DNA of 64,000 nucleotides from Candidatus Sungiibacteriota bacterium (lineage in GTDB: Bacteria > Patescibacteriota > Minisyncoccia > Sungbacterales > HO2-52-23). A program made the position numbers and the translations under genes. The notes under the pieces are model-generated. The model was not told the DNA's origin and searched no databases. It was given only the letters and a program-made list of their open reading frames with translations. Of the stretch, positions 3,220 through 63,065 are shown piece by piece; the stretch's first letter is position 1; every line of letters starts with the position of its first letter. Location: the NCBI GenBank assembly GCA_016432465.1, contig CP066690.1, positions 250,702 through 314,701 of the forward strand, in the 5' to 3' direction.

Positions 3220-3286
3220 AGCGAGTTTTAAATTGCAACTGATAAATTTTCATGATACGTTATTAATACTCGCAGAAGGCGCAGGG

Positions 3287-3333
3287 GGGCGTTTAGCCCC
3301 GACGCCTCGACTTTACGTCGGGGGTCGGGGCCT
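3287..3333. repeat. REP-like palindromic element (family GCCCCGACGCC..CGACTTTAC..CGGGGGTCGGGGC), copy 1
   Basis: near-identical copies at 4650-4725 and 28941-29000; two adjacent GC hairpins. Confidence 0.6.
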
Positions 3334-3394: not shown

Positions 3395-3465
3395 GGGCGT
3401 ATAGCTCAATGGCAGAGCGTCTCTTTGACGTAGAGAAGGTTCAAGGTTCAAATCCTTGTACGCCC
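3395..3465 (+). tRNA. tRNA-Val (anticodon GAC)
   Basis: cloverleaf read by hand: acceptor GGGCGTA/TACGCCC, D-arm TAGCTCAATGGCAGAGC, anticodon stem TCTCT/AGAGA with loop TTGACGT, T-arm CAAGG-TTCAAAT-CCTTG. Confidence 0.75.
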
Positions 3466-3487
3466 ATTTCAAAGGTAGGAGGGTGAA

Positions 3488-3542
3488 GCAGAGCGTTACA
3501 TTGACATTGTAAGGGTCGCAGGTTCAATCCTTGCAACGCCCA
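3488..3542 (+). pseudogene. tRNA-Val(GAC) 3' fragment (half D-arm, anticodon arm, T-arm, 3' acceptor; no 5' acceptor strand)
   Basis: GCAGAGCG-TTACA-TTGACAT-TGTAA-GGGTCGCAGGTTCAATCCTTGCAACGCCCA parallels the adjacent tRNA-Val, but no complementary 5' acceptor strand exists upstream. Confidence 0.5.
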
Positions 3543-3583
3543 CTACGCAGTGCTTAATCGAACAAAAAGAAAATCACAATTAT

Positions 3584-4156
3584 TCATCGTGATTTTTGTT
3601 TTCTTTTTTTGAATAAAAATTCTTTTCTCAAAATCCACCGCCCATCTCTTCTTTGAACACAAAGATTAACCCCGTCAACAGTAAAAGTTCTTGTATATCG
3701 AAAACCTTTTAATTCTTTTTTATATCGTTGGATGTTTCGTTCCGTATCTTTGGAGAGGGTTATGTGCGGGTTGTATTTTGAAAAAGCCCAATATGTGCTT
3801 CGAGCCCCCATCCGATGTTTTTTCTGGACAAGCTTTTTAAGTAAGCTGTGAAGCCTTTGTAATTTTGCGGGACAACTTGATTTTGCGAAAAGAACTCTGT
3901 TATCAAACCAGCCCAGTCCATCAATTCGCATTCGAAATGGTCCGAACTCCTCAAGGCAGAGCGTGATATCTTTTATCAGCGGTATCAAGCCTGCTCGTAA
4001 AACAAATGGCGGAACAAGAGTAATATGTGCGGATGAATGCGAAATTCCACTCGGATTATATTTTTTGCGGTAACCATCAAGTTCAAGAACTATGTTTTTG
4101 GGGATTCTCACGGTAATTAGTAAACGCATTTTGTTTTCCTTTTTTAGCCTTTTCAA
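3584..4156 (-). CDS. 2H phosphoesterase superfamily protein (LigT/ThpR-like RNA 2',3'-cyclic phosphodiesterase)
   Basis: two H-x-T-x motifs (HITLVPPF and HITLSKD) spaced as in the LigT family; about 180 aa. Confidence 0.7.
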   Translation of the reverse strand: MKRLKKENKMRLLITVRIPKNIVLELDGYRKKYNPSGISHSSAHITLVPPFVLRAGLIPLIKDITLCLEEFGPFRMRIDGLGWFDNRVLFAKSSCPAKLQRLHSLLKKLVQKKHRMGARSTYWAFSKYNPHITLSKDTERNIQRYKKELKGFRYTRTFTVDGVNLCVQRRDGRWILRKEFLFKKRKQKSR

Positions 4157-4301
4157 ATAAGATATGTTAATATAAACATATTAATACAGCGGTGGCAAGT
4201 TTAATACATGGGAGGATTTATAGCAATTTCCCCACATAATTATTTGGTAATTTTTGTGACAAGGTGCGTATATATTCGGTTAATGACCCATTAAGTCCAC
4301 T

Positions 4302-4658
4302 ATGCAAAAATCCGAACATGTACCATCTGAAGAAAACAGAGAAGAACCGACGCTCGAGAAACTTGATCGCGCGCTGGAAGAAGAAGAAGAACATCTTAAA
4401 GAATTCCCAAACCACGGAATCCATTTGGGAACTATGGAATTGCTGCATATCTCCAAACACTCCCCCGAACTTAGTAAATTTTTTGCCGATGCCGAAGAGA
4501 TATTAGAGCTTGACACTACGACAGCAGCACGGCTTAGAGATCTTGAAGAAAAATATTTAGCCTGTGTCATTACAGGGAAAGAAATTAAGGAGCTGGAAGA
4601 AAGATTTTTACATCCCTACTATCAAAAACTACAAAGGGAGAAAAGTGGGGGTGTTTAG
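4302..4658 (+). CDS. hypothetical acidic protein
   Basis: 118-aa ORF rich in E/K (LEEEEEHLKEF); the 3' end and stop codon lie inside REP-like copy 2. Confidence 0.35.
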   Translation: MQKSEHVPSEENREEPTLEKLDRALEEEEEHLKEFPNHGIHLGTMELLHISKHSPELSKFFADAEEILELDTTTAARLRDLEEKYLACVITGKEIKELEERFLHPYYQKLQREKSGGV

Positions 4659-4725
4659 CCCCGACGCCCCGACTTTACTCGGGGGTCGGGGCCCCGACCG
4701 CAAGGCGCGTCGGGGTTTAACCCTC
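4650..4725. repeat. REP-like palindromic element, copy 2
   Basis: GTTTAGCCCCGACGCCCCGACTTTACTCGGGGGTCGGGGCCCCGACC; same family as 3287 and 28941. Confidence 0.6.
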
Positions 4726-4809
4726 CCATCAATGAACAGGTTCGCTACGAAACAGAGTTTTTAGACGACCTCTTGGTAAAACGTCATTTATTCACTCCGT
4801 TAGATTTAT

Positions 4810-4839
4810 GGGTGCTTAGCTCAGTGGTAGAGTGTCTCG
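4810..4839 (+). pseudogene. tRNA 5' fragment (acceptor 5' strand, D-arm and 5' half of anticodon stem only)
   Basis: GGGTGCTTAGCTCAGTGGTAGAGTGTCTCG has no matching 3' half; flanked by direct repeats of CGT(CA)TTTATTCAC(C/T)CCGTTAGA. Confidence 0.45.
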
Positions 4840-4866
4840 TTTATTCACCCCGTTAGAAATCAAGCT

Positions 4867-4938
4867 GGGCAGTTAGTTCAATGGCAGAACGTCTGTTTTA
4901 CACACAGAAGGTTGTAGGTTCGATTCCTACACTGCCCA
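4867..4938 (+). tRNA. tRNA-Val (anticodon TAC)
   Basis: acceptor GGGCAGT/ACTGCCC, anticodon stem TCTGT/ACAGA with loop TTTACAC, T-arm GTAGG-TTCGATT-CCTAC; flanked by complementary CCCCGTTAGAAAT / ATTTCTAACGGGG. Confidence 0.75.
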
Positions 4939-4984
4939 AATTTCTAACGGGGCAGGCCGAGAAGAGCGGGGGTTCGAATCCCAT

Positions 4985-5040
4985 CATCTTCTTAGACAGA
5001 ACAAAATTCTCCCTTGCGGGGAATTTTGTTCTGTCTTAAA
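4985..5040. repeat. long perfect hairpin (16-bp stem AGACAGAACAAAATTC / GAATTTTGTTCTGTCT)
   Basis: read directly; lies in the 700-bp non-coding tRNA/repeat region. Confidence 0.5.
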
Positions 5041-5235
5041 TGCGTGGGGAATCGAACGGGGAGCAAAGAGTGAATGTCTTCACTCTTTGCGAACCCAGGA
5101 TTTTGCCGAGGGTAAAAAGCAAAAGATTTTGCTTTTTACGGGCTCGCTACATTCACAGCGCGAGTTTACGAGCGTATTGTGAAAGCGAACCCCGGGTTTG
5201 CTGAAGAAGCAAACAAAATCGATTCCCTCAACGCC
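5040..5235 (+). ncRNA. conserved structured element, copy D (family also at 12100-12310, 41905-42115, 43455-43590)
   Basis: shares the 5' motif GTGGGGAATCGAACGGGG, the GTGAATGTCTTCAC hairpin, a GTTTGCT-GAAGAA-GCAAAC hairpin and a 3' CGATTCCC that pairs with the 5' GGGAATCG; helices covary between copies. Confidence 0.4.
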
Positions 5236-8457: not shown

Positions 8458-9357
8458 GTGATAAAACGCATTCTAGCCCTTGTTCTTTTACTTTTTGCGG
8501 CCGGAGCCGGTCCCAGCTTCGCACTTCCGGATATTTTATATACCTATGCCGCTGGTCAGGGTGATAAGTCTGAAAAAAATCCTTCTCTAGCCGGCTTTGG
8601 CGGGCGAGCGTTAACGCTTTGTGTGGAAAAAACGGATCAGAAACTTAATGACATGTCGGTGCGAGATATATCTGACTTGTATAATGAGCGGAGAGTAACC
8701 CTGCCTGACCAGAAAATGCCCGGTTTTGTACGAAACGCCTGCCAACGGGGTCTTCAAGATTTTTTTGGTGAGCTTGAATTTGTAAAAGATATTGCCCGGT
8801 GGCTTGATAGAAACCTTAAATATCTTGTACGAGACCAGCTGGTTATCAGAAAAGATGACGGGAGAACAGATGTGCTTCTGGCGCCGAGCTCTAAAGAACT
8901 TCGGCAACCAACCAGATTTCAGGCAAGATTTAAATTCGGCGTTGACACTGACGGACACAAAATACAAGAGAATAGTTTGGACGGAATAATCACCCCGTCC
9001 TTCAAGTTGAATCTGAACTATGAGAAAGTGGAGTTTAAGCTTCGGCTAAATCCCGTACGACAAACGCTAAACGCCACCTTCGGCCTTGACCATTATCTCT
9101 TTGGGGCTTTGCGTCCTAACCTTGAATACAAAATACGACCCCATGAAGATAATCGCCAAATTTTTGAGATTGGATTTCTGGTTAAACCTGTCCTACCGGA
9201 AGTTGATGTCAGAATGATTACCCAAATTGTTCCCGAAAGACCATCGCATAATCACTTCTCCGGAGTTGGTTTGGTTTGGAAGCTTGACCACTGGGAGTGT
9301 TGGATTGCTCCCTCCTCCTGTCCAAATAAATCCCCCCACCTTCCCACGGGGTTTTGA
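8458..9357 (+). CDS. secreted hypothetical protein (signal peptide); C-terminal ~10 codons and stop supplied by a MITE copy
   Basis: N-terminal MIKRILALVLLLFAAGAGPSFA signal-like segment; the ORF reads into the repeat at 9327. Confidence 0.5.
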   Translation: MIKRILALVLLLFAAGAGPSFALPDILYTYAAGQGDKSEKNPSLAGFGGRALTLCVEKTDQKLNDMSVRDISDLYNERRVTLPDQKMPGFVRNACQRGLQDFFGELEFVKDIARWLDRNLKYLVRDQLVIRKDDGRTDVLLAPSSKELRQPTRFQARFKFGVDTDGHKIQENSLDGIITPSFKLNLNYEKVEFKLRLNPVRQTLNATFGLDHYLFGALRPNLEYKIRPHEDNRQIFEIGFLVKPVLPEVDVRMITQIVPERPSHNHFSGVGLVWKLDHWECWIAPSSCPNKSPHLPTGF

Positions 9358-9436
9358 ACCCTGCGGGAAGGATTTATACGGCACCCATTCATCCCCGCAG
9401 CAAACTGCGGGGTCTTCTAGGAGGGTGGGGGGATAA
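9327..9436. mobile_element. MITE-like palindromic element with TIR ATCCCCCCACCTTCCCA, copy 1
   Basis: terminal inverted repeats AAATCCCCCCACCTTCCC ... GGAGGGTGGGGGGAT; homologous to 38199-38326, 49238-49366, 51536-51643 and 62838-62892. Confidence 0.7.
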
Positions 9437-9525
9437 ATAGTCATCATGATAACATCCGTGCCTCTGGCGCGGATTTAAGTTGAAATAAATTAAAAATCAT
9501 GATATTCTGTCAGACATAACCTTGG

Positions 9526-11976: not shown

Positions 11977-12020
11977 CGGCGTTGTGGCTGACACGGGAGT
12001 CTGTCCCGCTGGTAGACGGC

Positions 12021-12093
12021 GGCGCGATGGCGAAGTAGCTAACGCAGCGGTCTGCAAAACCGCTATTCAGGGGTGCAAATCCCCTTCGCGCCT
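12021..12093 (+). tRNA. tRNA-Cys (anticodon GCA)
   Basis: acceptor GGCGCGA/TCGCGCC, anticodon stem GCGGT/ACCGC with loop CTGCAAA, T-arm AGGGG-TGCAAAT-CCCCT; flanked by complementary GGTAGACGGC / GCCGCCGTCTACC. Confidence 0.7.
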
Positions 12094-12099
12094 TTAGCC

Positions 12100-12310
12100 G
12101 CCGTCTACCTACGGGATTGCGATTTGTTGCCAAAATTTCTTCTCCCGACTGGTCGGGATCGAAATTTTGGACAAATCGGGAACAAAACTCCTATACGCGG
12201 GCTGACGCCAATTGCTTGGCGTCAGCGGGAAATTTAGCGAGCCGGGCGGGCCAGTGCGAGCGTTAAGAATTTCCCAGGGGTTTCGCTGACGAAAGCGAAA
12301 CCAATTCCCG
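12100..12310 (+). ncRNA. conserved structured element, copy A
   Basis: GGGAAATTTAGCGAGCCGGGCGGGCCAGTGCGAGCGTTAAGAATTTCCC hairpin followed by GTTTCGCT-GACGAA-AGCGAAAC hairpin; same architecture as copies B, C and D. Confidence 0.4.
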
Positions 12311-12361
12311 CCCATGCCTCAAAATTTTAGCTGTACCAATCTAAGACAGATACAGAACCTT

Positions 12362-12446
12362 GCCCGGGTGGTGGAATCGGTAGACACTAGGGACTTAAAA
12401 TCCCTTGGAGGCAAACTCCGTGCGAGTTCGAGTCTCGCCCCGGGCA
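12362..12446 (+). tRNA. tRNA-Leu (anticodon TAA), type II
   Basis: acceptor GCCCGGG/CCCGGGC, anticodon stem AGGGA/TCCCT with loop CTTAAAA, variable arm TGGAGGCAAACTCCG, T-arm GCGAG-TTCGAGT-CTCGC. Confidence 0.8.
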
Positions 12447-12509
12447 TAACGAGACTTACCCTGCACCACGTAGGGTGCAGGGTACCCAGCACTCAACGTA
12501 GTGCTGGGT

Positions 12510-12559
12510 AAAATCCCTTGGAGGCAAACTCCGTGCGAGTTCGAGTCTCGCCCCGGGCA
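12510..12559 (+). pseudogene. partial duplicate of the tRNA-Leu(TAA) 3' 50 nt, preceded by two 9-bp-stem hairpins
   Basis: AAAATCCCTTGGAGGCAAACTCCGTGCGAGTTCGAGTCTCGCCCCGGGCA is identical to the 3' portion of the upstream tRNA; no 5' half. Confidence 0.65.
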
Positions 12560-13151: not shown

Positions 13152-13300
13152 TTTCCGCCTCCTTTGTTAAACTGCACAGTCCTTGAGACTGCTCTGCTAT
13201 TATATTAGTTTATTAAAAGTCTGTCAAGTTTTGCAAAAATTTGCCAAAAGATTTAAGAGAAGAGGATACTTAAGAAAAACACCAGAAACAAAACAGACTT

Positions 13301-13326
13301 CCGTGCGAGTTCGGGTCTCGCCCCGG
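13301..13326 (+). pseudogene. second degenerate copy of the tRNA-Leu 3' end (att-like direct repeat)
   Basis: CCGTGCGAGTTCGGGTCTCGCCCCGG, one mismatch against the tRNA-Leu T-arm/acceptor. Confidence 0.5.
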
Positions 13327-13989: not shown

Positions 13990-14335
13990 TGGAATTTAAC
14001 CATCAAAGAAAAACTTGCTTGTCCGTCGTAGCTCGTGAGAGCGGAGGCGGAAAATTGTCATCCCCCTTCGCTCCTCCTCCGTCTACGACTTCGGCAGGAC
14101 ACAGTAAAACTTCGGACGGACAAGTCGGTGCGGCTCCCCGCCTGCGCCGAGGCTTCCACCGACGCTGAAGCTTTGACGGACAGGTCGGCGGGCAGACGCC
14201 GCCTTTCCGAATTTTCGCGGGCCTCCGCCTCGCCGAAGTGGCTTCGGCCACGCAGGCGGGGGGACTTCCTCGCCGCCGCAGGCGGCTCGCCTCATCCCCG
14301 ACGAGTCGGAGCGGGCGAAAGCGGTTAGGACTAAT
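13990..14335. repeat. GC-rich structured non-coding insert containing a 60-bp repeat (also at 15147-15207) and the shared 17-mer GCCGCAGGCGGCTCGC
   Basis: visibly far GC-richer than its surroundings; AAAGAAAAACTTGCTTGTCCG(T/C)CGTAGCTCGTGAGAGCGG(A/G)GGCGGAAAATTGTCAT is repeated at 15147; the six-frame ORFs here are low-complexity R/A/G/P strings. Confidence 0.5.
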
Positions 14336-14436: not shown

Positions 14437-14704
14437 GACAAAAATGAGTGGCTCCGCCACGCCGATAAAAACTACCAAAAAATCTATTAAAAACATCGGC
14501 TCGAACTGCATTTTAATTTGGGGAAAAGAAACTTTTTAATCATACGAATTAGGAAACAACTAGCACCGGAAACGTTAATTTTTTGTTAAGATTGACATAG
14601 CGTGCCATATATGCTATCCTTGTGTATATGCTATCCTTGTGATAGCATGGTAATCGAGCCATGTCGGCTTGATAGCACATTCCAAACAGAAAGGAGCGGA
14701 GTTT

Positions 14705-15004
14705 ATGCAGATGAGAAAGTTTCACCTCGGAGATGTTCTGAGCGTAATCACGCGAATCAACGTTTCTCCTCGCCTCATGAAGGGTGTTTTTGACATCACA
14801 AGCTTCATGGTGGGACACGAAATTGAACCCGCCGAGAACATTGTGCTCTATGCTGATCAGTGTAGGGCCAGTTTGCTCGAACAACACCCGAATCTCAAAA
14901 AGGTGAGCGTCGCTGGTGTAAACACGAAAAATTGGAAACAATGGCTCTCCACACAAGTGAAAAAGTATGGAGAGAAACTCTCGGTAAAGCCAATTTCCGC
15001 GTGA
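14705..15004 (+). CDS. hypothetical protein (about 99 aa)
   Basis: GAAAGGAGCGG ribosome-binding site 8 nt upstream of the ATG at 14705; tandem 17-bp direct repeats and TTGACA upstream; the fully overlapping 182-aa minus-strand ORF is judged an antisense artefact. Confidence 0.4.
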   Translation: MQMRKFHLGDVLSVITRINVSPRLMKGVFDITSFMVGHEIEPAENIVLYADQCRASLLEQHPNLKKVSVAGVNTKNWKQWLSTQVKKYGEKLSVKPISA

Positions 15005-15331
15005 TTTTTCATCAACCTCGCACATGGGCCCCTTGCGAAACACGTTTCTGCTAGGGGCTCTTTCTTTTTCTAAAATTGAAATTTTTGTCATACTCATTTA
15101 TTCCCTAGGTATTCGCCCCGCGAATTCTTGGATTGAATGCCGCCAAAGAAAAACTTGCTTGTCCGCCGTAGCTCGTGAGAGCGGGGGCGGAAAATTGTCA
15201 TTCGTGCGGCTCCGTTGGCTTGACTTTTTGCTGTGATTATGTTAGGATTAAGTATTGGCGAAAGTGGTGGTAGAAAACCCCTACCACGAGGGAATCGTGG
15301 AAACTTGAACATTGAAAGGGGGGTTGAGAAC

Positions 15332-20127: not shown

Positions 20128-20505
20128 TTAACGCTTCCTTTCCATCTCTCCCCAGGGATGGGGACGTTCCTTCGCATCAATGAGTTCTCTAAAGTGTTCG
20201 TGTCCTAGGCCAAAGTAATGCTCTAAACTTTTTCTCCCTTCAGGATTGGCAGAATGCACTCGTAACTCTGGATTTTCAGCAAATATTTCAGGGTGTGTTT
20301 CTGTTAACCATTTTGCTATCTCCCATCCTTCCATTTCTCCTTCGCCTAAGTCATTATCAAAACTCAAACCCTCAATTTTTTCTCCCTCTGCCAATGCCTT
20401 TTCTAGTACCCCCTGAAACTCTGTGAAATTCTTAACGCCAACCCAACCTTCGGGTTTCCAGTCTTTCCTTTCGGTTTCAACAAGATCATCTAAAAATATT
20501 TTCAT
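20128..20505 (-). CDS. hypothetical acidic protein
   Basis: most plausible start is MKIFLDD (ATG at 20505); the upstream extension of the ORF overlaps a tRNA-Phe fragment. Confidence 0.4.
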   Translation of the reverse strand: MKIFLDDLVETERKDWKPEGWVGVKNFTEFQGVLEKALAEGEKIEGLSFDNDLGEGEMEGWEIAKWLTETHPEIFAENPELRVHSANPEGRKSLEHYFGLGHEHFRELIDAKERPHPWGEMERKR

Positions 20506-20737
20506 AGTTAAAATGCTTAACGAAGTTAAAGAGTTGCGGCCAGCGGTAATCGAAACCGCGTCTGTTCCTTGGCAAGGAACCGTTCTACCACTAAACCATG
20601 GCCGCAAATAATAATGTATGCCGGAGGTCGGAATCGTCCCGCACAAATTGCTGCGCAATTTAACGGGGTTGCTGTTTGTTGCCAAAATTTTATCGCAGGT
20701 GCTCAAAATTTTGGACAAACAGGGAAAACTCCCGACG

Positions 20738-20775
20738 CCAGCCTCTTCGGGGCAGCACTCTACTTCACCCCGCCA
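20738..20775 (-). pseudogene. partial duplicate of the tRNA-Phe anticodon-arm/D-arm region
   Basis: GCCTCTTCGGGGCAGCACTCTAC versus GCCTCTTCAGGGCAGCGCTCTAC in the adjacent gene. Confidence 0.5.
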
Positions 20776-23589: not shown

Positions 23590-23880
23590 GGTTTTTCTTT
23601 TATTCTTTCCGTACTGGTGCGCGGGAGAGGACTTGCCTACAATTCTCGCCGGCTTCCGCCGGCTCGGTCGCAGGCCGCCCCTCGCGGTTTTGCTCGCCAA
23701 CTGCTCGCAAAACATCCCTGCGGTCTTCAAATTCTCACGCAACGCACGCAGGTGCGTTGCTTCCCTGCTCATTCGCTTCGCTCATTGCGCGGGAGAGGAT
23801 TTGAACCCCGCACTAAAATTTGCACCGGCTCCACCGAAAACAAAAGTGCAAATTTAGTGGCGGGGCATACCTCCACGCCT
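23590..23880. repeat. GC-rich region with two direct copies of a tRNA 3'-end-like sequence (GCGCGGGAGAGGA(C/T)TTG..)
   Basis: minus-strand GGTTCAAATCCTCTCCCGCGCA and GGCAAGTCCTCTCCCGCGCA; no complete cloverleaf could be built. Confidence 0.4.
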
Positions 23881-28833: not shown

Positions 28834-28862
28834 TTTAATTTTTTGATTATATTTTTAATTTT

Positions 28863-28934
28863 TGCCCCCACCAGGAATCGGACCTGGATCTAGAGCTTAG
28901 GAGTCTCTCGTTCTTTCCATTGAACTATGGGGGC
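28863..28934 (-). tRNA. tRNA-Arg (anticodon CCT)
   Basis: acceptor GCCCCCA/TGGGGGC, D-arm TAGTTCAATGGAAAGAAC, anticodon loop CTCCTAA with a 4/5 stem, T-arm CCAGG-TCCGATT-CCTGG. Confidence 0.65.
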
Positions 28935-28940
28935 ATGTTC

Positions 28941-29009
28941 TGTCCGCTCCGACGCCCTGCGGGGTCGGAGCCCCGACCTCCGACGTAAAACCGGAGCGTC
29001 GGGGTTGAA
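28941..29009. repeat. REP-like element copy 3 plus a 13-nt duplicate of the tRNA-Arg 5' end (GAACTATGGGGGC)
   Basis: GCTCCGACGCCCTGCGGGGTCGGAGCCCCGACCTCCGACGTAAAACCGGAGCGTCGGGG, then TTGAACTATGGGGGC repeated from 28920. Confidence 0.55.
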
Positions 29010-29021
29010 CTATGGGGGCTC

Positions 29022-30577: not shown

Positions 30578-30649
30578 GGTGTCCAGAGGGAATCGAACCC
30601 TCGTAGCCGCCTCCACAGGGCGGAGCTCTACCACTAAGCTATGGACACC
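30578..30649 (-). tRNA. tRNA-His (anticodon GTG) with encoded G-1
   Basis: G-1 followed by acceptor GTGTCCA/TGGACAC and C73, anticodon stem CCGCC/GGCGG with loop CTGTGGA, T-arm GAGGG-TTCGATT-CCCTC. Confidence 0.8.
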
Positions 30650-31128
30650 GTAAGTCTTTCCTTCTCCGTATTGTAATGATGAACCAGAAAATGGCAATTG
30701 TGGCACAACCAACACAAGTTTTTCAGCTTATTATTTTTACGGTTTTGGTCAAAGTGATGAACTACTAGGACCTGTAAATCTCTTTGACAACATAATCTAC
30801 AAACCGGCGGAATCCTACTGCGCAGCAGCATATTTTTATACGCATTTTCTCCGTGCCGCCAGTTGGCATGACTTGATCCGGTAAAAGTTGAGTGTCTCCA
30901 CTTCAGTTGACAAGCCCTACTGCAAAAATACTTTTTACTTTTAGACCTATTAAGAAATCTCTTTTGCCTATAAATCTTTTTTCGGCACAGAAAACAGGCC
31001 ACAATTCTTCCATTCTTTCTGCTCCGACGCTCGCATACCAATGAGCAGTATTTACCCCATCCCTTCTTAAGCCAGTGCGGTTTGGCATAAAAAGGCTTTT
31101 TACACAGCCTACAATTTACTTGCGGCAC
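30634..31128 (-). CDS. HNH endonuclease with N-terminal zinc-ribbons (paralog 1)
   Basis: HNH motif LVVHHFDQNRKNNKLKNLCWLCHNCH; CxxC pairs N-terminal. Confidence 0.7.
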   Translation of the reverse strand: MPQVNCRLCKKPFYAKPHWLKKGWGKYCSLVCERRSRKNGRIVACFLCRKKIYRQKRFLNRSKSKKYFCSRACQLKWRHSTFTGSSHANWRHGENAYKNMLLRSRIPPVCRLCCQRDLQVLVVHHFDQNRKNNKLKNLCWLCHNCHFLVHHYNTEKERLTVSIA

Positions 31129-31693
31129 GATTGATTACGTTTAGTATTGTATTACGATGAAGCACAGTGTGACAATTATGGCAGAGCCACATTAAATTAC
31201 TTATCCTATTATTCAGGTGATTACGGTCTTTATGGTGCACGACCAGTACACGTTTGTCAGTAATCTTGCAGAAACTGCATACTTCTTCTTTTGATGCTCG
31301 TCTCAAAAAGGCGCGGTAGGAGCCGCTAGAAAAACCGCCCCTCCAGTTTAAATGCCTTGGTCCGATGTACTGCAGCGTATTACGCCAGATTGTTTGACAC
31401 GATTTGTTACAAAAATATTTCTTGCTTTTTGATTTTTGTAAATCCGCCCTTGATCTATAAATTGATTTTCCGCACAAAAAGCACGCAAGTATTTTTCCTG
31501 TTTTCTGCCCCTCGTTTTTACACTTCAGTGAACAGTACTTGCCCCAGCCGGCCCTTCTAAAGGAGGGTCGCACATAGAATCTGGATTTACAAACCCTACA
31601 CCGAGTAGCCTGCATGTAACTATAGTATAGACGCAAAGAATGAAAATGGCAAACAGGGGGCTTCAGGTTATCCACAACCTCTCGTGATAACAA
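31109..31693 (-). CDS. HNH endonuclease with N-terminal zinc-ribbons (paralog 2)
   Basis: HNH motif LVVHHKDRNHLNNRISNLMWLCHNCH; same architecture as 30634-31128; the start is probably the internal MQATRC. Confidence 0.7.
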   Translation of the reverse strand: MLSREVVDNLKPPVCHFHSLRLYYSYMQATRCRVCKSRFYVRPSFRRAGWGKYCSLKCKNEGQKTGKILACFLCGKSIYRSRADLQKSKSKKYFCNKSCQTIWRNTLQYIGPRHLNWRGGFSSGSYRAFLRRASKEEVCSFCKITDKRVLVVHHKDRNHLNNRISNLMWLCHNCHTVLHRNTILNVINRAASKL

Positions 31694-33098: not shown

Positions 33099-33396
33099 CC
33101 GCTTCCCGCAAATTCTCAGCCAGAGGCTGATTCGCCTTTGACGGAAAATAGGGTTCGAGTCCCGATGGCAAGCCACCGAGGATCCTCGACAAAGTCGGGA
33201 TCGGTGTTTTTCTCTGGGTTTTTCTATTGTTCCTATACTTTAACTTCTGCGGCGATAGTCGCCTCTTTCCTTTTTCATAAAAATATCGGCGATCTCGGAC
33301 GCAACGAGATACGTCTCATGGGAGACGAAACATCTTTTTAACTCGCGATATGGACAGTAATTTTTGATTCTTCGGGTCAGCCAGCGCTTCGGCCAA

Positions 33397-37707: not shown

Positions 37708-38422
37708 GAAGCGCCGTAGTTGAGGTTAAACTAATAGAGCTTGTAAATTTGGGGCGGGCATAACTTACTTCAACGGTCATACGGACTGCTTCCCGCCCCA
37801 ACCCCTGCGACAAACGTTCCAACCGGAATTTATTAATTTTTACGGAGGCGGCAGAAATGGGAATGGCGGACTGCCCCTCTTGACGCAGCCAAAGCCTGCC
37901 GTTATCAACATAATAATCAACGTAGGCCGCGGCGTGCCCAGCCTGAACCCCAACAACCGTTATCAAAGAAAGCTGGCCGGAATCAATGTTAAAACGGCTC
38001 GTGGGAGAATAAATCTCTCCTGATTGGGCCAGTGACTTGGTTATCGTTTCCAGTAGCAGGCGGCCGTTGGAAAGAACTTCCCGTTCGGCCCGCGCCCGAT
38101 AATAAGCGTTAACCGTATTTATGAAAGAATTCACCACAAAAACAAGAAGCAGGCCCAAAAGCGCCACATAGATTATTATCTCAATAAGGGTAAGCCCTTT
38201 ATCCCCCCACCTTCCCAGAATACCCGCAGCTTGGGAAGTCAGACTTCCCTTGCTGCGGGGATGAATGGGCGCCGTAGAAATCCTTCCCGCGGGGTCCAAT
38301 ACCCCGCTGGGAAGGTGGGGGGATTTATTTTGGCGGTTAATCCTGATCATAGATTTTAAATCCAAAGTCATATTGATCCAGAAGCTGTCCGGAATCACTG
38401 GGGTTAGAAAGCCGACCAACAT
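37694..38422 (-). CDS. type IV pseudopilin (prepilin-type N-terminus KG|LTLIEIIIYVALLGLL) with MITE-derived 5' extension
   Basis: class III signal motif G-LTLIE with E at +5; the roughly 55 codons upstream of the motif lie within MITE copy 2. Confidence 0.6.
   Translation of the reverse strand: MLVGFLTPVIPDSFWINMTLDLKSMIRINRQNKSPHLPSGVLDPAGRISTAPIHPRSKGSLTSQAAGILGRWGDKGLTLIEIIIYVALLGLLLVFVVNSFINTVNAYYRARAEREVLSNGRLLLETITKSLAQSGEIYSPTSRFNIDSGQLSLITVVGVQAGHAAAYVDYYVDNGRLWLRQEGQSAIPISAASVKINKFRLERLSQGLGREAVRMTVEVSYARPKFTSSISLTSTTALRGNY
38199..38326. mobile_element. MITE-like palindromic element, copy 2 (full length, about 128 bp)
   Basis: ATCCCCCCACCTTCCCAGAATACCCGCAGC...GCTGGGAAGGTGGGGGGAT. 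Confidence 0.7.
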
Positions 38423-40210: not shown

Positions 40211-40511
40211 GACTAAATATTACCAAGTGAAGAATAAATCGGCTGCAGCATGGAAATTGCGAAAAAGCCAACTGCTCGTAGCTCGCTCGCCGCAGGCGGC
40301 TCGCTCGTACTCTTCAGAAACCCACGGTTTCCGACGCTCCGCTTCAACAAGCTCAGCGTCGCTGCTTTCCTACTCGGGGAAAACCTTCCGCTTTTCCCCG
40401 ACCCCTTTTTGTGCAGTTGGCTTTTGATCGTCTCTCGCAACATGTTTTAATTAAATATTACCAAGTGAAGAATAAATCGGCTGCAGCATGGAAATTGCGA
40501 AAAAGCCAACT
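40206..40511. repeat. 62-bp direct duplication of the pilC 3' end flanking a 182-bp GC-rich insert
   Basis: AAATATTACCAAGTGAAGAATAAATCGGCTGCAGCATGGAAATTGCGAAAAAGCCAACTGC occurs at 40206-40267 and 40450-40511; the insert contains GCCGCAGGCGGCTCGC. Confidence 0.65.
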
Positions 40512-41686
40512 GCCGCCCCAATGACAATCATAAGAATCGGTTCAATAATTGTAGAGAGATTTTTGGTGGTATTGGTTACGTCCTCCTCAAAAAAAAGGGC
40601 AAGACGCAGCAGCATCTCGGAGACTTTTCCCGTTTCCTCCCCCACTTGTATCATCTGCAGTACAACTGGCTGAAAAATAAGCGGGTGAGCAGCCAGTATC
40701 TTGTTTAGTTGTTTCCCTTTTTGAATTTCCGAAGATGCCTCTCGCACCGCATCTTTATAAATAGTGTTCCCCAAGACCGAAGACGTAATCTCAAGCGACC
40801 TGACGACGGGAACTCCGGAGGTAAGTAAGTAGGCCAGCGTCCGGCAGAAACGCGCAATGTTGAATTTTTTAATAAGCGCTCCGAAAATGGGAAGCTTTAG
40901 ACTTATACGATCAAAGATTTCCTTACCTTTTTGGGTTTTCAATATACGTATAAAAATAAAGACCAGCGCCGCCAAGGCGATTAAAAACCAAATAGCATAG
41001 TTGAGAATCAGGTCGCTAACAGTAACAATGATTTTGGTGGTAAAAGGAAGTTCCACCCCCAACTCTTTGATGGTTGAAGTCAGCGTCGGCACCACATAAA
41101 TCATCATAAGAGTTCCCACGCCGAGCAGAACCATAATAATTATGGCCGGATAAAACATTGCGCCCTTCACCCGTTTTTTAAGGTTGTAATCTTTTTTCAT
41201 CTGGTTGGCAATGAGTTTCAGGACTAATGTAAGTTTTCCTGTTGTTTCGCCCACTTCAACCATGTTTATAAAAAGCGGGCCAAAAACTTTCTCATGCAGA
41301 CGAAGAGAGTCGGCAAAAGATTTGCCTTTTATAACTGAATTGTTTACCTCGGTTAGTATTTTTTTAAACTTGGGGTTGGCTGACTCTTGGGCCAAAGCGT
41401 CTAGAGCGCGTGTCAAAGAAAGTCCGGCCGCGACCATAACCGCAAGATTCCGGGCAAAAAACATTTTGTCCACCACCCCCACGGGCCTAAGACGAGAGAG
41501 AAGATCTGAAATATTAATACTAATATTCCACGAAGCCAGCCCAGTTTTTCCTTTTTCTTTGGCTTCCAGCAGAAAAAGCCCTTCGGTTTTGAGGGTCTGC
41601 GCAAGGACTTTTTGGTTTTCCGCCTCGCGTTCCCCTTTTACTATTTTCCCATCTTTTGCCGCGGCGGAATATACATAAATAGGCAT
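40451..41686 (-). CDS. pilC: type IV pilus assembly platform protein PilC (GspF family)
   Basis: 411 aa, two GspF-like repeats with 3 TM segments; N-terminal MPIYVYSAAAKDGKIVKGE typical. Confidence 0.85.
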   Translation of the reverse strand: MPIYVYSAAAKDGKIVKGEREAENQKVLAQTLKTEGLFLLEAKEKGKTGLASWNISINISDLLSRLRPVGVVDKMFFARNLAVMVAAGLSLTRALDALAQESANPKFKKILTEVNNSVIKGKSFADSLRLHEKVFGPLFINMVEVGETTGKLTLVLKLIANQMKKDYNLKKRVKGAMFYPAIIIMVLLGVGTLMMIYVVPTLTSTIKELGVELPFTTKIIVTVSDLILNYAIWFLIALAALVFIFIRILKTQKGKEIFDRISLKLPIFGALIKKFNIARFCRTLAYLLTSGVPVVRSLEITSSVLGNTIYKDAVREASSEIQKGKQLNKILAAHPLIFQPVVLQMIQVGEETGKVSEMLLRLALFFEEDVTNTTKNLSTIIEPILMIVIGAAVGFFAISMLQPIYSSLGNI

Positions 41687-41904: not shown

Positions 41905-42115
41905 ATTCGAAGGGGCGAAAGCTAAAGGCTTTCGCGGGAAATTTAGCGAGCCAGTGAAACTGTGCGAGCGTTAAAAATTTCCCGGGGTTTGCCGAGGAGG
42001 CAAACTGAAAAACGTGAATGTCTTCACGTTTTGAAAACCCGGGCTCCGAAGGAGCGTGTAGCCGTGCGAAGCACGTGCGCAACGCGGGTGAGGAGGAATC
42101 CCACCCCCACCGCCA
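41905..42115 (+). ncRNA. conserved structured element, copy B; its 3' end duplicates the last 16 nt of tRNA-Ser(GCT)
   Basis: 5' GGTGGGATTCGAAGGGG; GGGAAATTT...AAATTTCCC hairpin; GTTTGCC-GAGGAG-GGCAAAC hairpin; CGTGAATGTCTTCACG hairpin; 3' GGAATCCCACCCCCACCGCCA. Confidence 0.45.
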
Positions 42116-43454: not shown

Positions 43455-43590
43455 GGTGGGTTCGCCTAATGGGTTGAAGCCAACTGCTTGGCTTCAACGG
43501 GCGATTTAGGCGAGCGTCCTCGCGAGCCGTTAAAAATCGCCCCGGGTTTCGCCGAGGAGGCGAAACGACACCAGTCTTCCCCGCACTACA
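43455..43590 (+). ncRNA. conserved structured element, copy C
   Basis: GGGCGATTT...AAATCGCCC hairpin (compensatory changes relative to GGGAAATTT/AAATTTCCC in copies A and B) and GTTTCGCC-GAGGAG-GGCGAAAC hairpin. Confidence 0.45.
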
Positions 43591-43596
43591 ATTTTG

Positions 43597-43671
43597 GAAG
43601 CGTGGCCGAGCGGTTTATGGCGCTGGTCTTGCCCGCCAGAGGCGGGTCCGCCTTTGGCGGAAAAACTACTT
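43597..43671 (+). pseudogene. tRNA-Ser-like 5' half fused to the 40-nt double-hairpin repeat (copy 1)
   Basis: GGAAGCGTGGCCGAGCGGTTTATGGCGCTGGTCTTGCCCGCCAGAGGCGGGTCCGCCTTTGGCGGAAAAACT has no T-arm or 3' acceptor. Confidence 0.5.
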
Positions 43672-43929
43672 ATGGCTATAACATACATTTTATTTAGTTC
43701 CAGTTGCGGTAAATTTTATGTTGGTTCTTCACGAAATGATAATATACGGGTTCGCCTTTCTGCCCACAATGCCGGACGAGTAAAATCTACTAAATCCTAT
43801 AGACCGTGGACTATTGTTACAACAGAAAAACTTCAGAGCTATTCTGATGCCAGAAAAAGAGAACTGTTTCTCAAGTCAGGTGTTGGGCGAAAATTGATAG
43901 CAGAGAAATTTGGATTTTTGAAAAGTTAA
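43672..43929 (+). CDS. GIY-YIG nuclease-domain protein (UPF0213/YhbQ-like), copy 1
   Basis: YILFSS..GKFYVGSSRN...RLSAHNAG....T....PW.IV..E......A..RE..LKS..GR pattern; real start at MAITYIL. Confidence 0.65.
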   Translation: MAITYILFSSSCGKFYVGSSRNDNIRVRLSAHNAGRVKSTKSYRPWTIVTTEKLQSYSDARKRELFLKSGVGRKLIAEKFGFLKS

Positions 43930-43950
43930 TATGTGTGGCGGGCTTGGTAG

Positions 43951-44023
43951 GGTGGCCGAGTGGTTTAAGGCGGCGGTCTTGCCCGCCAGAGGCGGGTCCG
44001 CCTTTGGCGGAAAAACTCAATAG
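43951..44023 (+). pseudogene. tRNA-Ser-like 5' half fused to the 40-nt double-hairpin repeat (copy 2)
   Basis: GGTAGGGTGGCCGAGTGGTTTAAGGCGGCGGTCTTGCCCGCCAGAGGCGGGTCCGCCTTTGGCGGAAAAACT. Confidence 0.5.
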
Positions 44024-44024
44024 T

Positions 44025-44315
44025 ATGCCCTGTATTTATATCTTATATAGCAGAAGTAAAAATAGGTTTTATGTCGGATCAACTAGAGACGATAGGCCTT
44101 TTGTGCGTTTAGACTCACACAACCATGGAAAGGTTCGCTCTACAAAAGCCGGACGGCCGTGGGCACTGACATACCAAGAGTACTACTCCAATTACCATCA
44201 AGCGAGGAAAAGAGAAATCTTCTTAAAATCCGGTGTTGGTAGGACTTGGATTAAAGAAAAATTTCCAAATCTAAAGAACGACGGCGCCGGAGCGGAGACG
44301 TGGGTGAGTGGCTGA
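44025..44315 (+). CDS. GIY-YIG nuclease-domain protein (UPF0213/YhbQ-like), copy 2
   Basis: MPCIYILYSRSKNRFYVGSTRDD...RLDSHNHGKVRSTKAGRPWALTYQEYY..YHQARKREIFLKSGVGR; its 3' end overlaps tRNA-Ser(TGA). Confidence 0.6.
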   Translation: MPCIYILYSRSKNRFYVGSTRDDRPFVRLDSHNHGKVRSTKAGRPWALTYQEYYSNYHQARKREIFLKSGVGRTWIKEKFPNLKNDGAGAETWVSG

Positions 44316-44380
44316 AACCGGCAGTCTTGAAAACTGCTATACCTGTAAGGGTATCGGAGGTTCGAATCCTCCCGTCTCCG
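44294..44380 (+). tRNA. tRNA-Ser (anticodon TGA), type II
   Basis: acceptor GGAGACG/CGTCTCC, anticodon stem GCAGT/ACTGC with loop CTTGAAA, variable arm ATACCTGTAAGGGTATC, T-arm GGAGG-TTCGAAT-CCTCC; flanked by complementary GCCGGAGC / GCTCCGGC. Confidence 0.8.
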
Positions 44381-44390
44381 CTCCGGCTCT

Positions 44391-44470
44391 GTCTTGCCCG
44401 CCAGAGGCGGGTCCGCCTTTGGCGGAAAAACTGGCGGGAGAAATCCCTTGCAGGTTCGACTCCTGCACCC
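44391..44470 (+). repeat. 40-nt double-hairpin repeat (copy 3) followed by a tRNA T-arm/acceptor 3' fragment
   Basis: TCTTGCCCGCCAGAGGCGGGTCCGCCTTTGGCGGAAAAACT then CTTGCAGGTTCGACTCCTGCACCCACCG. Confidence 0.5.
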
Positions 44471-44518
44471 ACCGTCGGTTAGGAAAAGGTCGATTTTTCA
44501 TAAATTTCATTTTATATT

Positions 44519-46832: not shown

Positions 46833-46912
46833 TTTTAAACTTGCGCTCGTCGTTCAACGGACAGGACAGAAGCTTGCGGAGCTTCAGATAGGGGCCCGCC
46901 CCCCACCTATGT

Positions 46913-46985
46913 GTCCCCGTAGTTCAGCGGATAGAATGCCAGCTTGCGGAGCTGGAGGTCGCAGGTTCGAATCCTGCCGGGGACG
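46913..46985 (+). tRNA. tRNA-Arg (anticodon GCG)
   Basis: acceptor GTCCCCG/CGGGGAC, anticodon stem CCAGC/GCTGG with loop TTGCGGA, T-arm GCAGG-TTCGAAT-CCTGC; flanked by complementary CCCCCACCTAT / ATAGGTGGGGGG; a duplicate of the anticodon arm lies at 46868-46886. Confidence 0.7.
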
Positions 46986-47025
46986 TATAGGTGGGGGGTG
47001 AAATTCCTCTCGAGCACGTCACATA

Positions 47026-49237: not shown

Positions 49238-49366
49238 TTATCCCCCCACCTTCCCAGAATACCCTACAGCTTGGGAAGTCAGACTTCCCTTGCTGCGGGG
49301 ATGAATGGGTGCCGTAGAAATCCTTCCCGAGGGGTCCAACACCCGCTGGGAAGGTGGGGGGATTTA
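49238..49366. mobile_element. MITE-like palindromic element, copy 3
   Basis: about 95% identical to copy 2, same orientation. Confidence 0.7.
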
Positions 49367-49370
49367 TTTT

Positions 49371-51537: not shown

Positions 51538-51643
51538 ATCCCCCCACCTTCCCAGCGGGGTATTGGACCCCGCGGGAAGGATTTCTACGGCGCCCATTCA
51601 CCCCCACAGCTTGCTGCGGGGTATTCTGGGAAGGTGAGGGGAT
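51536..51643. mobile_element. MITE-like palindromic element, copy 4 (opposite orientation, internal deletion)
   Basis: AAATCCCCCCACCTTCCCAGCGGGGTATTGGACCCCGCGGGAAGG...GGGAAGGTGAGGGGAT directly after the recG stop. Confidence 0.7.
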
Positions 51644-51684
51644 AAAATTAAAACACGGCTCTGTGACAGCCGTGCTTCGGAAAC

Positions 51685-54566: not shown

Positions 54567-54618
54567 AAAACCACCCGGTTTTCAGGAACTAGTTATAGCA
54601 TAGGAGTGTTTAGAAATT

Positions 54619-56268: not shown

Positions 56269-56293
56269 GATTGCGATTAAACGGCGGATAAAC

Positions 56294-57985: not shown

Positions 57986-58084
57986 AATATAAATAAAGCG
58001 CCAGAGCTCTGCTCTGGCTTTTGGGGCTTACTAAGACCTCTTGTACAATAACCCTTCGTAACGAAAGTTATTATGCAAAAGTCT

Positions 58085-58321
58085 TTACTCGCCACCTCTT
58101 TGTACGTAACTTCTTACAAACTCCTCCGCGTTTCCTTCCAACGTTGCATCAATATCTTCCAGAAGTTTATCCATATCTTCTTTTAGCTTCTTGCTTTTTT
58201 TCTCAGCGGCCTGACTGACTTTTTCTTCTTCGCTTTCTGGCTTGTCCTTTACTTTTTCTGCGTTCTTTTGCTCTTCCGCCACTTCTGCCTCCCTTTGGTG
58301 GCCCTTATTGAAGTTTAACAC
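58085..58321 (-). CDS. pup: Pup-like prokaryotic ubiquitin-like protein ending in GGE
   Basis: 78 aa, disordered acidic/lysine-rich body; C-terminus MDKLLEDIDATLEGNAEEFVRSYVQRGGE parallels the Pup consensus ...DDLLDEIDGVLE.NAEEFVRAYVQKGGQ/E. Confidence 0.75.
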   Translation of the reverse strand: MLNFNKGHQREAEVAEEQKNAEKVKDKPESEEEKVSQAAEKKSKKLKEDMDKLLEDIDATLEGNAEEFVRSYVQRGGE

Positions 58322-58357
58322 AGCGCCGTAAATAATGCAATCCGATATCCAATAGAT

Positions 58358-60220: not shown

Positions 60221-60272
60221 GTGTAACCACAGCCGAAAGAAAAATCCACCCTAGGGGGTGGATCAATTGATT

Positions 60273-62837: not shown

Positions 62838-62892
62838 TAAATCCCCCTCCTTCCCAGCAGGGTATTGGACCCCGCGGTAAGGTGGGGGGATA
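62838..62892. mobile_element. MITE-like element, copy 5 (55-bp deletion derivative retaining both TIRs)
   Basis: AAATCCCCCTCCTTCCCAGCAGGGTATTGGACCCCGCGGTAAGGTGGGGGGATAAA. Confidence 0.6.
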
Positions 62893-62895
62893 AAA

Positions 62896-62935: not shown

Positions 62936-63065
62936 ATCTTCGCTTCGCTCGATATAAACGGTTCGCTCGGACAAAATGAAAGATTGCTTTCATTTTCTCC
63001 TCGCTGCCGTTTATAAGACGCAAGCTCTAACTTCATCCCCCACCTATTTTGGACAAGATAAAAAA

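Follow-up and report, generated by a model that had tools for sequence, protein, structure and literature searches.

The closest described counterpart of the system reported here is SegB, a free-standing GIY-YIG homing endonuclease of the tRNA gene cluster of phages T4 and T6, which makes cuts inside tRNA genes and brings about co-conversion of neighbouring tRNA DNA as well as recombination-dependent tandem amplification of tRNA and segB units (PMC2330249; PMC13096335). The DNA analyzed in this study is a 64,000-nucleotide stretch (the window) of the chromosome of a Candidatus Sungiibacteriota bacterium, a member of the Candidate Phyla Radiation (CPR, Patescibacteria). It contains 16 intact tRNA genes, on which ARAGORN and Rfam agreed, and at least 20 partial tRNA pieces, nearly all of them next to an intact tRNA of matching anticodon; at some loci an intact tRNA gene lies between the halves of another, and at one locus two genes for minimal GIY-YIG proteins are present. 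Like segB, the GIY-YIG open reading frames (ORFs) stand immediately beside tRNA genes, here in arrays of tRNA 5' half, module M and GIY-YIG ORF. Unlike SegB, the proteins are 80-96 aa long, consist of the catalytic domain only and belong to a UPF0213-like branch. They are found in bacterial CPR chromosomes, whereas viral contigs (IMG/VR) gave no match, and two-hairpin modules bound DNA in which a split outer tRNA gene is accompanied by a replacement inner tRNA.

Two ways of occupying an essential RNA gene harmlessly are known, namely self-splicing introns and integrases that supply the 3' end. Elements that use an integrase to enter tRNA genes resemble the present loci in that the insertion is made harmless by carried tRNA sequence and partial duplicates are left behind, and mobile-element integration is a known general source of tRNA fragments (PMC9897764). 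Here, however, no integrase was found, 5' fragments and D-loop breakpoints occur, the insertions measure tens to hundreds of bp and are not islands, and the whole tRNA is replaced, with inner and outer genes differing on both sides. Group I introns with homing endonucleases in bacterial tRNA genes share the anticodon-loop site, the homing-type ORF and 'exon' halves that could serve as homology arms. In contrast to those introns, no ribozyme was detected here, and rescue would come from a second complete tRNA gene, within the insertion or adjacent to it, and not from splicing.

Module M, a 30-nt palindromic sequence, was recovered from at least 120 metagenome stretches; it stands in frame within recG and gyrA and also in RNA genes, and in this respect it is like Rickettsia palindromic elements (RPE), repetitive extragenic palindromic (REP) sequences and miniature inverted-repeat transposable elements (MITE). 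A nuclease gene between repeat copies also recalls the 'REPtron' of REP sequences and their REP-associated tyrosine transposase (RAYT), but here the enzyme is a GIY-YIG nuclease and not a Y1 transposase, the tie to tRNA loop positions is strong, and the stems vary by compensatory changes between subfamilies. Archaeal split and permuted tRNAs likewise have 5' and 3' halves that lie apart in the DNA, next to complementary GC-rich sequences (PMC3218864). Unlike these, the loci described here always have an intact copy adjacent, the halves decay and the host is a bacterium. Reading through the junctions, with no formal search, revealed no bulge-helix-bulge motif. To our knowledge, the relevant tRNA splicing machinery is not known in bacteria. 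The rRNA genes of CPR bacteria bear non-intron insertions, some with GIY-YIG ORFs (PMC11270868). In the literature consulted, of which coverage was incomplete, we found no description of nested tRNA-in-tRNA cassettes, of a minimal GIY-YIG family linked to tRNA-Ser, of module M or of a tRNA-fragment system in CPR bacteria.

Nested and partial tRNA genes

At five loci (Val-GAC, Val-TAC, Ser-TGA, Arg-GCG and Ile-TAT), halves of an outer tRNA gene enclose an intact inner tRNA gene of different sequence (Table 1). The neighbouring intact tRNA had the same anticodon in all cases in which that of the fragment could be read (Val-GAC, Val-TAC, Leu-TAA, Phe-GAA, Ser-TGA, Arg-GCG and Ile-TAT). The outer acceptor strands pair with each other and not with the inner tRNA (7 of 7 positions at Val-GAC and Ile-TAT, 6 of 7 at Arg-GCG), and the inner and outer stems of Val-GAC differ by compensatory changes. 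When the outer pieces of Val-GAC and Arg-GCG were joined in silico, ARAGORN recognized a tRNA with the anticodon of the inner gene; in the case of Val-GAC, tRNA-Val(GAC) was called at nearly every junction choice. Breakpoints fall in the D loop (Val-GAC, Ile-TAT, Arg-CCT and Phe-GAA), the anticodon loop (Ser-TGA, Leu-TAA and Val-TAC) or the T loop (Arg-GCG and Ser-GCT). The nested arrangement recurs in many genomes, and outer halves are perfectly complementary in L011, L014, L005 and L003. This anatomy requires repeated insertion, in many lineages, of tRNA-bearing DNA into the loop positions of resident tRNA genes with the same anticodon.

Two of the loci show further detail. Within the decayed 3' piece of Val-TAC, which includes a minihelix-like portion (4961-4991), CCGAGAAGG matches the anticodon-stem 3' strand of type A in L003, and at Ile-TAT there appears to be a second anticodon-arm layer. 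The Val-GAC genes of relatives were tried as a guide to the ancestral copy and did not clearly favour either one (54 vs. 48 and 53 vs. 45 matches).

Two kinds of sequence bound the inserted DNA, namely two-hairpin modules and inverted repeats around the inner tRNA. The modules comprise M (CCCGCCnnnGGCGGG TCCGCCnnnGGCGGA), its variant M' at Leu-TAA, and P (CCCGAC.../GTCGGG...), which follows tRNA 5' fragments not only at Val-GAC but also at 4660-4715, at 28944-29004 and in L135. The inverted repeat CCCCCCACCTAT...ATAGGTGGGGGG is common to Arg-GCG and Ile-TAT, Val-TAC has CCCCGTTAGAAAT, and a related CCCCG... repeat is found at the Ser tRNAs of L003 and L005. A right junction of the form ...GGTGGGGG(A)TGAAG followed by (C/T)AGAGC is shared by the Val-GAC, Phe and Ile loci of the window and the tRNA-Phe of L005; the Val-GAC version AGGTAGGAGGGTGAA is similar to ...GGTGGGGGATGAAG followed by CAGAGC in L005 and at the window Ile locus.

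Module M occurs four times in the window, against an expectation of 0, and a further module, Q, five times. Between subfamilies the hairpin stems vary by compensatory changes (CCCGCC/GGCGGG, TGCGCC/GGCGCA, TCTGCC/GGCAGA and TCAGCC/GGCTGA). M, P and Q have the properties of MITE-, REP- or RPE-like sequences, being short, structured, multi-copy, dispersed and either non-coding or in frame. The M copy within recG occupies the same site in three other metagenome contigs, and M is also found just after many start codons; L018, L042, L124, L029 and many other stretches carry it. The in-frame copies in recG and gyrA are a separate second lead.

Other inverted repeats were observed near these loci. 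Long leader/trailer repeats (duplex -22 to -37 kcal/mol), which could be cassette ends or processing stems, loop out the tRNAs for Val-TAC (4848-4952), Cys (12008-12112), Ser-TGA (44283-44392), Arg-GCG (46899-46998) and Ile-TAT (63037-63159). Hairpin repeats of ~50-130 nt with the terminal inverted repeat ATCCCCCCACCTTCCCAG lie at gene ends (9332-9437, 38200-38330, 49240-49370, 51541-51646 and 62843-62893), and at their termini they resemble the inverted repeats on both sides of the Arg-GCG and Ile-TAT tRNAs. A third family, GGGAAATTTAGCGAGC...GCGAGCGTTAAAAATTTCCC GGGGTTTGCCGAGGAGGCAAAC, always lies by tRNA loci (~12225-12300, ~41930-42005, ~43505-43565 and, in part, 5095-5213); related GAGCGAAGCGA motifs occur in tRNA-interrupting insertions elsewhere (L010 and L103).

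The partial copies were evaluated by running each tRNA with BLASTN-short against the tRNA-masked window and by running generic tRNA profiles with nhmmer, and 60 dinucleotide-preserving shuffles served as the control for both scans. BLAST gave six matches of at least 30 bits (shuffle mean 0.08, maximum 1) and 14 of at least 26 bits (shuffle mean 1.4), and nhmmer gave 13 of at least 7 bits (shuffle mean 0.48). Seven of the 10 distinct nhmmer matches lie within 300 nt of an intact tRNA; such zones make up ~17 % of the window. Chance similarity as the source of the fragments was thus ruled out. A first-pass annotation of the window, made from the sequence alone, had called it littered with partial tRNA duplicates and had proposed a BLASTN scan with each tRNA as a check and, as a refutation, a systematic scan in which most fragments fall below chance similarity; the duplicates are genuine by these counts.

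Most of the individual fragments in that annotation were recovered as described: the Val-GAC 3' part at 3488-3542, the Leu-TAA copies at 12510-12559 (51 nt identical to Leu-TAA positions 36-86) and 13301-13326, and the Ser 5' halves at 43597 and 43951, which form a 74-nt repeat (92 % identity) with strong comparative support. Some belong to larger pieces. The 5' fragment at 4810-4839 reaches 4842, the 3' fragment at 44432-44470 extends over 44427-44474, the Arg-GCG anticodon arm at 46868-46886 lies within a 55-nt outer 5' portion, and the 3' fragment at 62896-62935 has an acceptor strand complementary to the 5' fragment at 63165-63179. Two needed adjustment: the Phe copy placed at 20738-20775 is genuine (E = 2e-4) with a different extent, and the Arg-CCT 5' end is real but lies at 29005-29019 instead of 28995-29009. 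The T-arm/acceptor repeats reported at 23618 and 23785 received moderate support (nhmmer E = 0.12 for 23786-23813; both contain TCCTCTCCCGCGCA). Additional pieces were found at 3287-3297, 4649-4659, 4957-4991, 42086-42112, 46999-47017, 63007-63030 and 63165-63179.

Other loci are one-sided, with a piece only upstream (Arg-CCT) or only downstream (Leu-TAA, Phe-GAA, Ser-GCT and Leu-GAG) of the intact tRNA. The downstream layout of Leu-TAA is the same as in L019, where module M stands. Just past the hisS stop codon, a degenerate two-hairpin module resembling M precedes a T-arm/acceptor-like piece (33114-33172); this is possibly a further tRNA scar (nhmmer E ~0.8).

Comparison with relatives indicates that tRNA genes have been turned over. 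The IF-2 of the window is 61-63 % identical to that of related metagenome-assembled genomes, in which the order Val-GAC, Val-TAC, Ser-CGA, infB, Cys, Leu-TAA is conserved. The window Val-TAC 5' fragment has 30 of 33 bases in common with the Val-TAC gene that is intact in L002 and L003. Of the Val-TAC type found intact in the window, L003 retains only a copy that is truncated at its 5' end and has an insertion in the T loop; thus, a type intact in one lineage is broken in the other. The outer Ser 3' half matches that of L005 at 44 of 48 bases, compared with 64 of 82 for the intact Ser tRNAs. Partial copies were also seen for Glu-TTC in L002 and for Val-TAC and Ser-CGA in L003, and 17 of 60 intact tRNAs had a near-identical partial copy within 600 nt in contigs selected for M, which are a biased sample.

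Table 1 Positions of tRNA genes, tRNA fragments and associated modules in the window
Feature	Position	Strand	Remarks
Outer tRNA-Val(GAC) 5' fragment GGGCGTTTAGC	3287-3297	+	11 nt; acceptor GGGCGTT pairs 7/7 with AACGCCC at 3536-3542
P-type two-hairpin module (CCCGAC...GTCGGGG)	3298-3332	+	Abuts Val-GAC 5' fragment; repeat family D18
Intact inner tRNA-Val(GAC)	3395-3466	+	71.9 bits; acceptor GGGCGTA/TACGCCC
Right junction AGGTAGGAGGGTGAA, then outer Val-GAC 3' part	3473-3542	+	Rfam tRNA 23.8 bits over 3481-3542; nhmmer E = 2e-6
Outer Val-GAC 3' part, D-stem 3' strand to acceptor	3488-3542	+	55 nt
Second unit, tRNA 5' fragment GGGTGTTTAGC and P module	4649-4715	+	81 % identical to 3285-3332 (D18)
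Outer type A tRNA-Val(TAC) 5' half, ending in anticodon loop	4810-4842	+	nhmmer E = 2e-4
Intact type B tRNA-Val(TAC) enclosed by inverted repeat	4848-4952 (tRNA 4866-4939)	+	13-bp CCCCGTTAGAAAT / ATTTCTAACGGGG, duplex -23 kcal/mol
Decayed outer type A Val-TAC 3' half (CCGAGAAG..GGTTCGAATCC..)	4957-4991	+	nhmmer E = 0.03-0.34
Intact tRNA-Leu(TAA)	12361-12447	+	Upstream of its fragments
Leu-TAA remnant GAGACTTA, module M' (12459-12508), 3' half copy (12509-12559)	12451-12559	+	51 nt at 100 %
Second Leu-TAA T-arm and acceptor copy	13300-13326	+	27 nt at 96 %, E = 6.5e-8
Outer tRNA-Phe(GAA) remnant after junction GGCGGGGTGAAG	20722-20774	-	13 nt downstream of intact tRNA-Phe; 29 nt at 90 %
Two T-arm/acceptor 3' fragments	23786-23813, 23615-23637	-	Downstream of tRNA-Leu(GAG); moderate support
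tRNA-Arg(CCT) 5' fragment	29005-29019	-	15 nt exact
P module at Arg-CCT	28944-29004	-	61 nt
Intact tRNA-Arg(CCT)	28862-28935	-	
tRNA-Ser(GCT) 3' fragment, T loop disrupted	42086-42112	+	17 nt at 100 %, E = 2.5e-4
Ser-TGA unit 1: Ser 5' half, M, GIY-YIG ORF	43596-43631, 43632-43661, 43672-43929	+	85 aa; PF01541, 4.7e-12
Ser-TGA unit 2: Ser 5' half, M, GIY-YIG ORF	43946-43981, 43982-44011, 44025-44315	+	96 aa; PF01541, 2.2e-11
Intact tRNA-Ser(TGA)	44294-44381	+	
GTCTTG and M	44397-44426	+	
Outer Ser 3' half	44427-44474	+	
Outer tRNA-Arg(GCG)	5' part 46843-46897, 3' remainder 46999-47017	+	Joined construct called tRNA-Arg(gcg) by ARAGORN
Inner tRNA-Arg(GCG)	46912-46986	+	Inside inverted repeat CCCCCCACCTAT / ATAGGTGGGGGG
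Module M in frame within recG (ORF 49432-51537)	51019-51048	+	Adds PAKGGSASGG
Outer tRNA-Ile(TAT)	5' fragment 63165-63179, D and anticodon piece 63007-63030, 3' half 62897-62935	-	GGGTGCG/CGCACCC 7/7
Inner tRNA-Ile(TAT)	63065-63138	-	Within 18-bp inverted repeat 63141-63159 / 63037-63054

The Ser-TGA locus and its GIY-YIG genes

The Ser-TGA locus (43596-44474) consists of two consecutive units of Ser 5' half, M and GIY-YIG ORF, followed by the intact tRNA, GTCTTG with a third M, and the outer 3' half. The 5' half of the first unit ends at anticodon position 35, and a promoter-like site (43565-43592) ends 4 nt ahead of it. The two ORFs share only 55 % amino acid identity, yet the three M copies of the locus are identical.

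In 47 homologues, the catalytic and conserved GIY-YIG residues Tyr16, Gly18, Arg28, His32, Asn33 and Glu64 were at least 96 % conserved. The catalytic domain fills the length of these 80-96-aa proteins. Two features of Seg-like nucleases are present, namely a catalytic domain with conserved residues and insertion beside the target tRNA (Ser, and Phe or Lys in other subfamilies), whereas a third, a separate DNA-binding domain, was not found in them. The NCBIfam model grpIintron_endo matched residues 4-42 only, far under its cut-off, and the closest solved structure was the uncharacterised UPF0213 protein 1YWL (E = 0.035).

When the contexts of six homologues picked by protein similarity alone (P0011, P0018, P0021, P0022, P0039 and P0044) were inspected, the ORF directly adjoined a tRNA-Ser gene (TGA, CGA or GGA) in all six, as in the window, so that the linkage between nuclease and tRNA-Ser was constant. 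Ser 5' halves and M-type modules were present in five of them (all except P0039), and in several M and a 3' half lay downstream. The same ORF and tRNA-Ser arrangement was seen in several contigs selected for M. Tandem arrays also recur: L136 has two units, as in the window, and the P0039 gene (L138), just downstream of tRNA-Ser(GGA), stands beside an array of at least three tandem 339-nt units of 98-99 % identity.

Other subfamilies are associated with other tRNAs. In the Sungiibacteriota relative L005, a GIY-YIG ORF lies in CCCCCACCTAT-type inverted repeats within the D loop of an outer tRNA-Phe, an intact tRNA-Phe comes after it, and these inverted repeats are homologous to those around the window Ile and Arg tRNAs. 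In L135, a 16-nt tRNA-Lys 5' fragment is followed by a P-like module, a GIY-YIG ORF and an intact tRNA-Lys. A search of IMG/VR returned neither an exact match to M nor a close GIY-YIG relative, and a phage origin of the cassettes was ruled out for this reason.

Proposed mechanism and alternatives

We propose that the fragments are relics of nuclease-linked cassettes that invade tRNA loops and rescue the interrupted gene with their own tRNA copy, and we assign this reading a probability of roughly 0.55. A cassette would enter a tRNA gene at a D-, anticodon- or T-loop position, and its bounds would be either a two-hairpin module (M, M' or P) or inverted repeats of the CCCCCCACCTAT or CCCCG... 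family. By supplying a tRNA of the same anticodon, or the lacking part of the tRNA, it would keep the cell viable and leave the old gene as 5' and 3' pieces. A complete cassette would add the minimal GIY-YIG gene, for which the displaced 5' half, retaining its promoter, may provide expression. We infer that the nuclease cuts cassette-free tRNA genes and that repair from a cassette-bearing copy, with the outer tRNA halves as homology arms, would result in spread and tandem amplification. Recombination among the outer 5', inner and outer 3' segments could produce one-sided variants and tandem arrays, and loss of the nuclease ORF with decay of the outer halves would leave bare scars. A homing-type cassette of this kind appears to be the most economical mechanism, and the phage SegB precedent backs it.

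If the proposal is correct, the tRNA genes of ultra-small bacteria are repeatedly overwritten by nuclease-linked cassettes with their own replacement tRNA, which would give mobile elements a third route to occupying an essential RNA gene without killing the host. It would also extend the SegB-tRNA relationship from phages to cellular chromosomes and explain many of the fragments and pseudo-tRNAs in CPR tRNA annotation. The catalytic-domain-only GIY-YIG proteins of the UPF0213-like family would then be structure- or tRNA-gene-directed nucleases. More tentatively, an ~85-aa GIY-YIG protein and a 30-nt module may together form an undescribed selfish element of CPR bacteria that homes to tRNA loops, brings a replacement tRNA and acts as a 'cleave and rescue' drive turning over tRNA genes. 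Because the nuclease has no DNA-binding domain, a remote variant can be imagined in which a transcript of the displaced tRNA 5' half and the conserved module might help to target it in a guide-like manner.

Several points weigh against the cassette proposal. Neither cleavage nor mobility was observed, and near-identical strains (L136 vs. L137 and L138 vs. L139) showed no clean presence/absence polymorphism, one comparison ending at a contig end and the other consisting of array divergence only. The 85-aa proteins have no DNA-binding domain to account for site specificity. In L014 and L103, the inner tRNA has, around the insertion point, the sequence of the outer halves, and a sequence-specific nuclease would therefore not spare the inner gene. 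No nuclease ORF accompanies most of the window scars (Val, Leu, Arg, Ile and Phe), and their link to GIY-YIG genes therefore rests on analogy with other genomes. The A-then-B order of Val-TAC in two lineages also fits an old tandem pair with differing decay. Finally, M lies far from tRNAs in some cases and in frame in recG and gyrA, and thus may be an independent palindromic element.

The alternative that survives best is ordinary tandem or segmental duplication of tRNA genes with differential decay, in which M, P and Q insert secondarily into redundant copies as MITE- or REP-like elements and the GIY-YIG genes are bystanders. At Val-TAC, type A precedes type B both in the window and in L003, the intact one not being the same in the two, and a degenerate near-tandem copy follows tRNA-Phe; M is dispersed over many non-tRNA sites, and palindromic repeats are abundant in the window. 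Duplication, however, predicts copies side by side and not an intact gene between the mutually pairing halves of another, and the inner and outer genes, which differ throughout, compensatory stem changes included, are not recent duplicates. The tight, repeated linkage of the ORF to tRNA-Ser across phyla is also hard to obtain by chance. Duplication accounts for Val-TAC and Phe but not for the nesting or the ORF linkage, and we regard it as unlikely to be the general explanation.

We also considered attachment site (att) scars, left by tyrosine- or serine-recombinase elements that integrated into tRNA genes and were later excised or decayed, and concluded that they are an improbable source. Such scars are a documented common origin of prokaryotic tRNA gene fragments (PMC9897764), and the classical att-like form is present at Leu-TAA (a perfect 51-nt 3' repeat from the anticodon loop and, 740 bp on, a 27-nt T-arm repeat, with an orphan 147-aa ORF between) and at Ser-GCT (17 nt of the 3' end repeated exactly). 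A direct repeat of the 3' end of the intact tRNA was found only there and not at Val-GAC, Val-TAC, Arg-GCG, Ile-TAT or Ser-TGA, where displaced 3' pieces differ from the intact gene and pair with separate upstream 5' pieces and not with its 5' strand. Many pieces are 5' pieces, and there are breakpoints in the D loop. Even the 51-nt Leu repeat lies 61 bp from its gene across a gap made up mostly of two hairpins, which in L019 is filled by M. Pfam scans of ~70 ORFs of at least 100 aa detected no integrase, recombinase or transposase family (~20 ORFs were without any match, and short pseudogenes are not excluded), in agreement with the first-pass annotation, which had noted the lack of an integrase. 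That annotation had attributed the scars either to site-specific integration and excision or to recombination driven by tRNA-linked elements. As for the former, repeated insertion at tRNA genes is upheld, but the integrase type does not fit the missing recombinase, the 5' pieces, the breakpoints and the nesting. The latter is nearer to the data, since hairpin or inverted-repeat modules bound the pieces and GIY-YIG genes stand at one locus.

That the pieces are functional split or intron-containing tRNAs, whose transcripts are joined or kept in contact by way of the hairpins or inverted repeats as in archaeal split tRNAs, is highly improbable. Perfectly complementary outer halves exist in four other contigs (listed above), in a transcript the inverted repeats around the inner tRNAs would draw the outer halves close to each other, conservation between the window and L005 is higher for the outer Ser 3' half than for the intact Ser tRNAs, and RNA-repair-type genes (LigT and cREC) stand beside tRNA loci. 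Against this, an intact tRNA of the same anticodon is adjacent in every case, and the window pieces show decay: at Ser the 3' half has no pairing with the 5' halves, the outer Val-TAC gene has lost its acceptor, and the arms of the Phe copy are truncated. Neither Intron_gpI nor any other ribozyme was matched in the window by Rfam (E<=10); at the split sites, where a group I intron or another RNA family was a candidate, Rfam gave only tRNAs and plastid-UTR/miRNA noise over tRNAs. We know of no archaeal-type splicing endonuclease pathway in bacteria. An assembly artefact is unlikely, as the architecture was seen again in independent JGI, ENA and NCBI assemblies.

Neighbouring genes and repeats

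The proteins encoded in the window include IF-2, RbfA, L19, HisRS, RecG, FtsH and type IV pilus proteins, and one small protein has an identical counterpart (P0001) in a Candidatus Sungiibacteriota metagenome-assembled genome, on a contig of 923,469 bp. With 16 tRNA genes per 64 kb in a genome of ~923 kb, we judged from the window count that tRNA genes are probably markedly concentrated here. A LigT/2H phosphoesterase gene (3584-4156, - strand) lies between the Val tRNA loci, and a cREC_REC gene (cyclic-phosphate RNA-repair receiver; 20128-20718, - strand) adjoins the Phe and Gly tRNAs; tRNA loci are thus bordered by genes of RNA-repair type. A look-up of the exact LigT protein, aimed at sister strains, gave no record.

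Two tandem HNH endonuclease ORFs (30634-31693, - strand) are located between hisS and tRNA-His, directly upstream of the latter. They match PHROG 1271 (5.5e-17 and 3.2e-13), and their match to Pfam HNH_3 is weak. No tRNA-His fragments were detected near them. The second ORF overlaps the 5' end of tRNA-His, an arrangement that mirrors the two GIY-YIG ORFs ahead of tRNA-Ser and is possibly a parallel case.

A Pup/proteasome-like set was found at 53016-62201 (- strand), with three paralogues of the Pup-ligase family beside an AAA ATPase with a proteasomal OB domain. Two further direct repeats were observed, one perfect over 62 nt near the pilus genes (40214-40275 and 40452-40513, 238 nt apart) and one of 58 nt (97 % identity) at 14004-14061 and 15144-15201, on both sides of the ORF at 14549-15097.

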